A stretch of DNA of 4,516 nucleotides, from assembly GCF_003334255.1 (NCBI RefSeq), contig NZ_QOWU01000108.1. One strand, written 5' to 3'. This document shows, one piece after another, positions 286-4,190 of the stretch. Under the pieces are notes generated by a model. It was not told the DNA's origin, made no database searches, and was given only the letters and a program-made list of their open reading frames with translations. A program made the translations under genes and the position numbers. This DNA comes from Escherichia coli. GTDB taxonomy: Bacteria > Pseudomonadota > Gammaproteobacteria > Enterobacterales > Enterobacteriaceae. The first letter of the stretch is position 1, and each line of letters begins with the position of its first letter.

Positions 286-295
286 CAAATTAAGC

Positions 296-330
296 AGAAG
301 GCCATCCTGACGGATGGCCTTTTTGCGTTT
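296..330 (+). terminator. rrnB T2 intrinsic terminator
   Basis: Hairpin aaggccatcc (298-307) / ggatggcctt (312-321) with 4-nt loop, followed by a T-run and gcgttt. Matches the rrnB T2 sequence as I recall it. Confidence 0.88.
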
Positions 331-417: not shown

Positions 418-1446
418 ATGAACCACTCCTTAAAACCCTGGAACACATTTGGCATTGATCATAATGCTCAGCACATTGTATGTGCCGAAGACGAACAACA
501 ATTACTCAATGCCTGGCAGTATGCAACCGCAGAAGGACAACCCGTTCTTATTCTGGGTGAAGGAAGTAATGTACTTTTTCTGGAGGACTATCGCGGCACG
601 GTGATCATCAACCGGATCAAAGGTATCGAAATTCATGATGAACCTGATGCGTGGTATTTACATGTAGGAGCCGGAGAAAACTGGCATCGTCTGGTAAAAT
701 ACACTTTGCAGGAAGGTATGCCTGGTCTGGAAAATCTGGCATTAATTCCTGGTTGTGTCGGCTCATCACCTATCCAGAATATTGGTGCTTATGGCGTAGA
801 ATTACAGCGAGTTTGCGCTTATGTTGATTCTGTTGAACTGGCGACAGGCAAGCAAGTGCGCTTAACTGCCAAAGAGTGCCGTTTTGGCTATCGCGACAGT
901 ATTTTTAAACATGAATACCAGGACCGCTTCGCTATTGTAGCCGTAGGTCTGCGTCTGCCAAAAGAGTGGCAACCTGTACTAACGTATGGTGACTTAACTC
1001 GTCTGGATCCTACAACAGTAACGCCACAGCAAGTATTTAATGCGGTGTGTCATATGCGCACCACCAAACTCCCTGATCCAAAAGTGAATGGCAATGCCGG
1101 TAGTTTCTTCAAAAACCCTGTTGTATCTGCCGAAACGGCTAAAGCATTACTGTCACAATTTCCAACAGCACCAAATTACCCCCAGGCGGATGGTTCAGTA
1201 AAACTGGCAGCAGGTTGGCTTATCGATCAGTGCCAGCTAAAAGGGATGCAAATAGGTGGGGCTGCGGTGCACCGTCAACAGGCGTTAGTTCTCATTAATG
1301 AAGACAATGCAAAAAGCGAAGATGTTGTACAGCTGGCGCATCATGTAAGACAGAAAGTTGGTGAAAAATTTAATGTCTGGCTTGAGCCTGAAGTCCGCTT
1401 TATTGGTGCATCAGGTGAAGTGAGCGCAGTGGAGACAATTTCATGA
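418..1446 (+). CDS. murB: UDP-N-acetylenolpyruvoylglucosamine reductase (peptidoglycan precursor synthesis, FAD-dependent)
   Basis: 342-aa ORF beginning [30 protein letters not shown], recognised as E. coli MurB, which is also 342 aa. Sits immediately upstream of birA as in the known murB-birA arrangement. Confidence 0.95.
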
Positions 1447-2436: not shown

Positions 2437-3387
2437 TTATTTGCGTAGTCTGACCTCTTCTACCGCATGATTAGCACTTTTCGTCAGGATTAAACTGGCG
2501 CGCTCACGAGTAGGTAGAATATTTTGCTTTAAGTTCAGCCAGTTGATCTCTTTCCACAATGTCATGGCAGTCTTAATCGCTTCTTCTTTAGTTAATTTCG
2601 CGTAGTTATGAAAATAGGAATCCGGGTCGGTAAAAGCCCCTTCGCGGAATTTCAGAAAACGGTTGATATACCATGTCTGAAGTAAGTCTTCCGGTGCATC
2701 AACATATATCGAAAAATCGACAAAATCAGAAACAAATACATGATGTGGATCGTGTGGATAATCCATCCCGCTCTGTAAGACATTTAACCCTTCAAGAATT
2801 AAAATATCAGGCTGAACAACCGTTTTATCTCCATCCGGGATCACATCATAAATAAGATGTGAGTAAACAGGTGCTGTAACGTTTGGCACGCCGGATTTGA
2901 GATCGGAAACAAACTTCACCAGGCGATGCATATCATACGATTCCGGGAAGCCTTTCTTCTTCATCAGACCACGTTCTTTCAGAACCTGATTAGGGTGAAG
3001 GAAGCCATCTGTAGTGATCAGTTCAACACGACGATGTTCCGGCCAACGGCTTAATAGCGCCTGCAATACACGGGCGGTTGTACTTTTCCCCACCGCGACA
3101 CTGCCAGCAATACTGATAATGTAAGGAATGCGTTGCCCGTTGGTACCAAGAAACTGTTCCAGAACTGCCTGACGGCGCAGATTCGAGCTTATATAGAAGT
3201 TCAGCAAACGTGACAAAGGTAAATAGATCTCGGCAACTTCTTCTAACGAGAGATCTTCATTAATACCTTTGAGACGGGCGATCTCATCTTCCGATAACGT
3301 CATAGGTACGGAATCACGCAGAGCTGCCCACTGGTTGCGGTCAAACTGTAGGTAAGGCGTCATTAACGTTTGCTCTTTTATACTCAT
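2437..3387 (-). CDS. coaA: Pantothenate kinase (type I, CoA biosynthesis)
   Basis: Minus-strand ORF whose product from [20 protein letters not shown] to AVEEVRLRK is recognised as E. coli CoaA (316 aa). Walker A/P-loop GSVAVGKST at aa 95-103 (nt 3079-3105). The ORF track extends the frame to 3543 (368 aa), but I place the start at the ATG at 3385-3387 (MSIKEQ); the extension is only a stop-free in-frame leader. Confidence 0.9.
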
Positions 3388-3639
3388 AAGCATGTTTCTG
3401 GCGGTCATAGCTCTATCGGCAAAGCGATATTTGCCATGGCGCGTCACAGTTCTGTTGAATGGGTTAATGGGCAGGAGGGTAACACCAGATGGGGAGGAAT
3501 AATAAGAAAAAATCTCTGCCAGGAAGCTATCGTTGAAAAGCAATGTGACAGATATTCCATCTGATAAAAAGAATTATGGTTTAGCAGGAGCGCATTGTTG
3601 AGCACAATGATGTTGAAAAAGTGTGCTAATCTGCCCTCC

Positions 3640-3748: not shown

Positions 3749-3824
<76 letters not shown>

Positions 3825-3832
3825 TCAAGTCC

Positions 3833-3917
<85 letters not shown>

Positions 3918-4033
3918 ATTTCGGCCACGCGATGGCGTAGCCCGAGACGATAAGTTCGCTTACCGGCTCGAATAAAGAGAGCTTCTCTCGATATTCAGTG
4001 CAGAATGAAAATCAGGTAGCCGAGTTCCAGGAT

Positions 4034-4108
<75 letters not shown>

Positions 4109-4114
4109 AGATGT

Positions 4115-4190
4115 GCTGATATAGCTCAGTTGGTAGAGCGCACCCTTGGTAAGGGTGAGGTCGGCAGTTCGAATCTGCCTATCAGCACCA
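4115..4190 (+). tRNA. thrT: tRNA-Thr (anticodon GGU)
   Basis: 76 nt. Acceptor stem gctgata/tatcagc, anticodon stem caccc/gggtg with loop tTGGTaa (anticodon GGT), T-loop ttcgaat, encoded CCA. Begins 6 nt after glyT. Confidence 0.93.

Follow-up and report, generated by a model that had tools for sequence, protein, structure and literature searches.

The question raised by this locus is whether birA, whose start codon overlaps the stop codon of murB, is translated by ribosomes delivered from murB, by ribosomes that bind afresh at its own site, or by both. The window, that is the whole stretch of 4516 bases analysed, covers the E. coli rrnB–murB–birA–coaA–tRNA–tufB region, which we take to be the rrnB–tufB interval of the E. 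coli map. It matches E. coli chromosomes at 100% identity, and at least 80% of its length is present in 5420 of 5426 complete genomes. It opens with the last stretch of an annotated 5S rRNA gene belonging to an rrn operon (1-115), followed on the plus strand by murB (418-1446, encoding the UDP-N-acetylenolpyruvoylglucosamine reductase of 342 aa, with a TGA stop) and birA (1443-2408, encoding the biotin-protein ligase and bio operon repressor of 321 aa), both as given by the ORF list and RefSeq. Beyond these lie coaA on the minus strand (2437-3387, RefSeq), four annotated tRNA genes (3749-4190) and the annotated start of a tuf gene downstream of them. The identities that an earlier note on this DNA had assigned to MurB and BirA are borne out by NCBIfam models and by end-to-end PDB matches: MurB scores 539 bits with NF000755 (cut-off 277) and aligns over 342/342 residues with 1mbb_A, and BirA scores 655 bits with NF008849 (cut-off 474), carries the repressor domain TIGR00122 at residues 6-76 and aligns over 321/321 residues with 1bia_A. 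The coaA product, a type I pantothenate kinase, scores well above its curated NCBIfam cut-off. Its minus-strand frame is open upstream as far as a TTG at 3543 (368 aa), the annotated start being the ATG at 3387 (316 aa), and the alignment with the family model begins only at residue 9 of the annotated protein.

At the junction, two genes of the same strand share stop and start bases in the sequence and in RefSeq alike, the birA ATG (1443-1445) and the murB TGA (1444-1446) forming ATGA at 1443-1446. The 3' end of the murB frame reads GTG GAG ACA ATT TCA TGA, so that the last murB codon lends its third base to birA as the A of the ATG. The birA Shine-Dalgarno (SD) motif, GGAG at 1431-1434 (+), consists of the last G of the murB codon Val338 (GTG) and the Glu339 codon (GAG). 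It is thus embedded in murB, and its spacing of 8 nt from the ATG is a workable one for initiation at birA. There is no ambiguity about where birA starts, because no start codon occurs between the in-frame stop at 1416-1418 and position 1443. The murB stop, the birA start, the ATGA and the GGAG had been placed by the earlier note at precisely the positions found in the sequence, the ORF list and RefSeq. The bare motif means little, since shuffling the window 200 times yields one or more copies of GGAG-N8-ATGA in 26 cases (13%) and ATGA itself shows no excess (37 observed vs 43 expected). What stands above chance is the position of the motif and its conservation.

Conservation was scanned using one genome per species. 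The scan reached about 40 Enterobacterales genera and gave 80 loci, in which BirA is 78-99% identical; the 79 scanned loci that hold DNA upstream of birA make up, together with the reference locus L001, 80 loci in which the junction can be read. All 80 have the overlap of four bases (ATGA or GTGA), with MurB identity falling as low as 63%, and the one truncated locus of the scan carries the same GGAGACCATTGCATGA at the junction. Both the length of the murB tail and the overlap are invariant in 80/80 loci, while several residues of that tail vary freely. Among the 79 loci scored, the murB stop is always TGA and the birA start is ATG in 47 and GTG in 32; this A/G difference is synonymous in murB, whose last codon has only A or G as its third base. 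The overlap conservation may in part be a mutational lock, as a change in the T or G of TGA would destroy the start codon of birA, an essential gene.

A sharper signal comes from codon choice within the SD. Glu339 is encoded by GAG in 78 loci and by GAA in one, whereas the invariant Glu codons at -9 and -18 of the same murB tail are mostly GAA (64 GAA to 15 GAG and 57 GAA to 22 GAG, respectively). Although these counts come from related species and are not independent observations, the contrast at Glu339 is real, because neighbouring synonymous sites are close to saturated. The Glu339 codon has the lowest synonymous entropy among the 222 scorable codons of murB, Val338 is GTG in 60/70, and the most synonymously constrained window of the gene is its last seven codons (0.49 vs a gene mean of 0.81). 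Pairing of the site with the anti-SD of 16S rRNA amounts to -6.4 kcal/mol in E. coli and to a mean of -7.5 over species, as compared to a mean of -3.2 for control windows inside murB. The SD and the birA start codon are thus under selection at the nucleotide level, and the earlier claim that an SD of birA resides within the murB coding sequence is correct. A trade-off between start codon and SD strength was considered and rejected, as mean pairing energy does not differ between ATG and GTG species (p = 0.88). The GGAG core is kept in 32/32 species with a GTG start, and all 13 species lacking it use ATG (loci L002-L081), several of these having a shifted GAGG(T) instead. Being counts over related species, these co-occurrences give a hint of possible stabilising selection on total initiation strength.

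Beyond Enterobacterales, examined through 50%-identity representatives and their contigs, representatives whose BirA is 39-62% identical still have murB as the immediate upstream neighbour of birA, and the two genes overlap by 4 to 14 nt: 4 nt in L085/L086, L089, L090 and L091, 13 nt in L083/L084, 14 nt in L093, and 8 nt in L087/L088 (or +1 with the next ATG). One distant contig has birA with no murB match upstream. In L082, where BirA is 58-60% identical, murB and birA are separated by an MFS transporter gene (1366-2517), the end of which is overlapped by the called birA start by 17 nt; evidently a gene other than murB can become the upstream partner of birA. A pantothenate kinase gene is a lasting neighbour of birA across gammaproteobacteria and comes in two unrelated types. 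Type I coaA (PF00485) is convergent to birA in E. coli, L083 and L085; in L093 the three genes coaA-murB-birA follow one another on the same strand. Type III coaX (PF03309) overlaps the birA 3' end in L089, L091 and L092. The adjacency of murB and birA is old, and the exact 4-nt form common, not obligatory. Taken with the overlap in 80/80 loci and the constraint on the Glu339 codon, the persistence of the murB-birA order in distant gammaproteobacteria argues that the ribosome-binding site and the overlap are functional and under selection.

Coupling of translation presupposes a shared mRNA. A hexamer resembling a -10 element, TAAACT (383-388, +), with a weak match to consensus, lies about 30 nt upstream of the murB ATG as a putative murB-birA promoter. 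It is contained in the block GGTAAACTA (381-389), which is at least 90% conserved in 67 species and is likely to represent a murB promoter or regulatory site. This block lies directly downstream of the rrn terminators, and between it and murB the 5' UTR GtttttgcatcaGgA around the likely murB SD (AGGA, 406-409, +, 8 nt before the murB ATG) is also conserved. The rrn terminator hairpins that follow the 5S gene are located at 121-164 and about 290-325 (+), with a Term-seq 3' end at 161. Since murB starts about 90 nt past the second of them, read-through from the very strong rrn promoters could feed murB-birA transcription. Within murB-birA, a simple scan detected no terminator-like or promoter-like sites on the plus strand; a laxer scan for an internal murB promoter gave only weak consensus matches, such as TGgTAAAAT at 692-700, and this candidate was discarded. 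In published data, murB and birA mRNAs shift in the same direction in the same two comparisons of a Shigella RNA-seq study. Literature searches retrieved no transcript mapping of murB-birA, and the names murB and birA are absent from the SMRT-Cappable-seq supplements.

The earlier note had named an independent promoter and transcription start for birA as evidence that would speak against coupling, and a single weak candidate was found for the start and no recognisable promoter in front of it. It is a 5' end backed by only five reads, which Table S4 of Kim et al. 2012 (PMC3415461) assigns to birA among the leaderless mRNAs. Its coordinate on NC_000913.2, 4171104, corresponds to window position 1442 (+), 1 nt before the ATG. 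Were it a genuine start, birA might be made mainly from its own, for instance nearly leaderless, mRNA beginning inside or at the end of murB, and the transcription and translation of murB would then matter little. We regard such a separate transcript as highly improbable. A sigma-70-like scan identified no -10 or -35 element at a workable distance upstream of 1442, and the DNA preceding birA is variable across species, the SD excepted. An SD would be of no use to a leaderless mRNA, yet no murB codon is more constrained than the one within the SD, and among the 222 scorable codons there is no second cluster of constrained synonymous sites that would hint at an embedded promoter. The end at 1442 could instead be a processing product or a cleavage next to, and protected by, a ribosome.

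Other mapped ends bear on the mRNA levels of the two genes and on the boundary with coaA. Term-seq data (Adams et al. 2021, PMC7815308) include a weak 3' end inside murB at window position 1000 (+), 582 nt into the gene and insensitive to Rho inhibition; termination there would leave less mRNA for birA than for the 5' part of murB, so that the two mRNA levels would be somewhat uncoupled. At the other end of birA (2402-2436), where birA and coaA converge, the spacer of 28 nt contains a single GC-rich hairpin (2412-2431), which is terminator-like on the minus strand, and a strong Term-seq 3' end at 2407 on the minus strand marks the 3' end of coaA (Adams et al. 2021, PMC7815308). The hairpin thus terminates coaA, whose 3' end falls inside the birA stop codon, so that the 3' ends of the birA and coaA mRNAs overlap. 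Read on the plus strand, the hairpin is followed by a poor T-run, and the Term-seq data report no plus-strand birA 3' end at this hairpin; it possibly also ends the murB-birA transcript. A Rho-dependent 3' end antisense to birA at 2153 (-) in the same study (PMC7815308) presumably derives from coaA read-through into birA.

Given a common mRNA, the tightness of any coupling should depend on whether the birA site is accessible to free ribosomes. Reporter tests of five E. coli ATGA pairs (hyfHI, astDB, ydbH-ynbE, menDH and bioBF; Huber et al. 2019, PMC6728339; 2023, PMC10666635) revealed coupling in four, of which three were strictly coupled and menDH by about 60%, while bioBF was uncoupled (PMC6728339). 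Where coupling was strict, the downstream start was predicted to be stably structured, and unmasked starts were accompanied by de novo initiation (PMC6728339). If birA behaved as the strict pairs do, it would be translated only by ribosomes that have just finished murB, its start being otherwise unavailable, and BirA would be a fixed fraction of MurB. Apart from the precedent of these three pairs, what could be cited for this is the minimum-energy fold of the E. coli sequence, in which stems flank the site on both sides (1419-1431 paired with 1454-1466), and the cost of about 8 kcal/mol for opening the 30-nt site, which is not negligible. However, the SD and the ATG lie in a 22-nt loop of that fold, whose z-score of -1.7 is unremarkable, and an RNAalifold consensus of 80 sequences, one per species, contains no conserved base pair around the birA start. 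Opening the 30-nt site costs 8.4 kcal/mol overall, as compared to 10.9 for control windows taken elsewhere in the same mRNAs, and in 74 of 79 species the site is easier to open than the controls are on average. A hairpin masking the birA start, as suggested by the single-sequence fold, was therefore rejected as unconserved, the site being open. The stable local structure blocking de novo initiation that accompanied strict coupling in E. coli (Huber et al. 2019, PMC6728339) is thus not found at murB-birA. With no conserved structure and above-average openness the site should be available to free ribosomes, hence coupling would be partial at most. Strict dependence on murB is accordingly rated as unlikely. 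As to the tight coupling that the earlier note had proposed for this arrangement, the ATGA type is one for which coupling was seen in four of five tested pairs, and it is the word "tight" that fits poorly with an unmasked, open site and describes the less likely form.

An accessible site also raises the opposite reading, in which murB and birA share an mRNA and every ribosome on birA binds afresh at the GGAG and ATG, the 4-nt overlap being compact packing that is hard to mutate away and murB translation having little effect. We give this reading a minor though appreciable share of credence. The lack of masking, the above-average openness and an SD of normal strength that is under selection are all what it predicts, overlaps of 8 to 14 nt are tolerated in distant relatives, and bioBF, an ATGA pair equally free of structure, behaved in just this way without any coupling (PMC6728339). 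The protein levels agree with it as well. According to Dataset EV6 of Mori et al. 2021, which reproduces the ribosome-profiling values of Li et al. 2014 as molecular weight times copies per generation, about 228 MurB and 131 BirA are synthesized per generation, similar rates that differ by a factor of 1.74; by xTop proteomics the mass fractions are 0.92-1.02e-4 for MurB and 4.4-5.3e-5 for BirA, approximately 2:1. A MurB:BirA synthesis of 1.7:1 rather than 1:1 accords with separate initiation, and it fits reinitiation of about half efficiency equally well. The translation efficiency of murB is 1.01 in Burkhardt 2017, which has no row for birA. The earlier note had the junction linking the stoichiometry of the cell-wall enzyme to that of the biotin ligase, and this link was overstated, given that about 228 and 131 copies are made per generation and that the two proteins are flagged as not forming a complex (Huber et al. 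2023, PMC10666635).

Several points count against initiation that is independent throughout. Coupling was observed in four of the five E. coli ATGA reporter pairs (PMC6728339), and reinitiation is reported to depend steeply on intergenic distance in three native E. coli pairs (PMC10666635). In the coupled pairs removal of the SD reduced reinitiation by 60-100%, a moderate SD having mattered in four of five (PMC10666635). Selection on the birA SD fits fresh initiation as well as reinitiation. As the stop and the start share bases, terminating ribosomes are inevitably delivered to the birA start, and the freely varying residues of a murB tail that never changes in length are not what mere packing would lead one to expect.

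Full-text literature searches retrieved no study of coupling or co-transcription specific to murB-birA. The reading that we favour, with a confidence somewhat better than even and by analogy with the pairs tested elsewhere, is a bicistronic mRNA with two routes into birA, termination-reinitiation accounting for part of its translation and fresh SD-directed initiation for the rest. The two cistrons would be transcribed together from the conserved promoter-like element just upstream of murB. A ribosome terminating on murB would have the birA start 1 nt behind it, with the SD holding the small subunit, and some of these ribosomes would restart on birA. Free ribosomes would bind the birA site directly as well, since it is not buried and its SD is of ordinary strength, and the two routes would divide birA initiation between them. 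Reinitiation together with direct binding would leave birA output partly, not strictly, coupled to murB translation. The outcome would be a steady low level of BirA, made at roughly half the rate of MurB, with neither a promoter nor regulation of its own; the lack of expression signals for birA, other than an SD buried in murB, could explain why its expression is low and steady.

The overlap as such was already known from genome annotation and a published table (PMC10666635), and it is an ordinary operon junction. Indeed, ATGA overlaps are the commonest configuration of same-strand gene pairs in E. coli (PMC6728339, PMC10666635), and 24% of such pairs lie at distances of -8 to +6 (PMC10666635). 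The murB-birA junction is real, functional and strongly conserved, and yet a routine example of the commonest type of bacterial gene junction. Its practical importance is that the 3' end of murB holds the only recognisable expression signal of an essential regulator gene, hence editing of the murB 3' end, or replacement, tagging or knockdown of murB, may affect birA, and the GAG of Glu339, which looks synonymous, really belongs to the birA ribosome-binding site. A more ambitious and quite doubtful idea is that the junction, along with the pantothenate kinase gene, constitutes an ancient dosage-setting module under selection. BirA both biotinylates AccB and acts as the sensor and repressor of biotin synthesis, so that its cellular level sets the switch point of the circuit, and how strongly it represses depends on how much BirA there is in proportion to unbiotinylated AccB. 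Were the idea true, this sensor, lacking both a promoter and a feedback loop of its own, would have its level determined by the flow of ribosomes through an essential cell-wall gene, and biotin and fatty-acid control would be tied to envelope growth, with a second, nearly leaderless birA transcript perhaps providing a floor independent of murB.

The junction can be compared with known systems. It shares with the ATGA pairs of Huber et al. both the ATGA and an SD inside the upstream gene, and it is listed at distance -4 in their E. coli pair table, outside the tested set (Huber et al. 2023, PMC10666635). Overlapping pairs are enriched for subunits of complexes (PMC10666635), unlike murB-birA, which is flagged there as non-complex. 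Since it lacks the local structure of the strictly coupled pairs, its nearest counterparts would be menDH, which is coupled in part, or bioBF, which is not. The classical cases of translational coupling in E. coli operons are trpE-trpD and trpB-trpA, with overlapping stop and start, and galT-galK. In these, as in murB-birA, the second gene starts where the first one stops or right beside it; the trp and gal pairs, and probably murB-birA as well, have both genes on one mRNA and a yield of the second that depends on ribosomes coming from the first. The products of the trp and gal pairs are subunits of a single enzyme or carry out steps of a single pathway, for which equimolar output is rational, whereas MurB, acting in peptidoglycan synthesis, and BirA, acting in biotin attachment and bio repression, have no common pathway or complex. 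A different parallel is offered by the birA-coaX pairs of other bacteria, which appear in the table of Huber et al. as COG0340@COG1521 (PMC10666635), in L089, L091 and L092 as overlapping genes and in fused form as NCBIfam NF009862. In these pairs birA likewise stands in tight same-strand overlap with a housekeeping cofactor gene, but as the upstream partner, whereas in E. coli it is downstream of murB, and the E. coli pantothenate kinase is the non-homologous type I coaA, which is convergent to birA and does not overlap it as coaX does.
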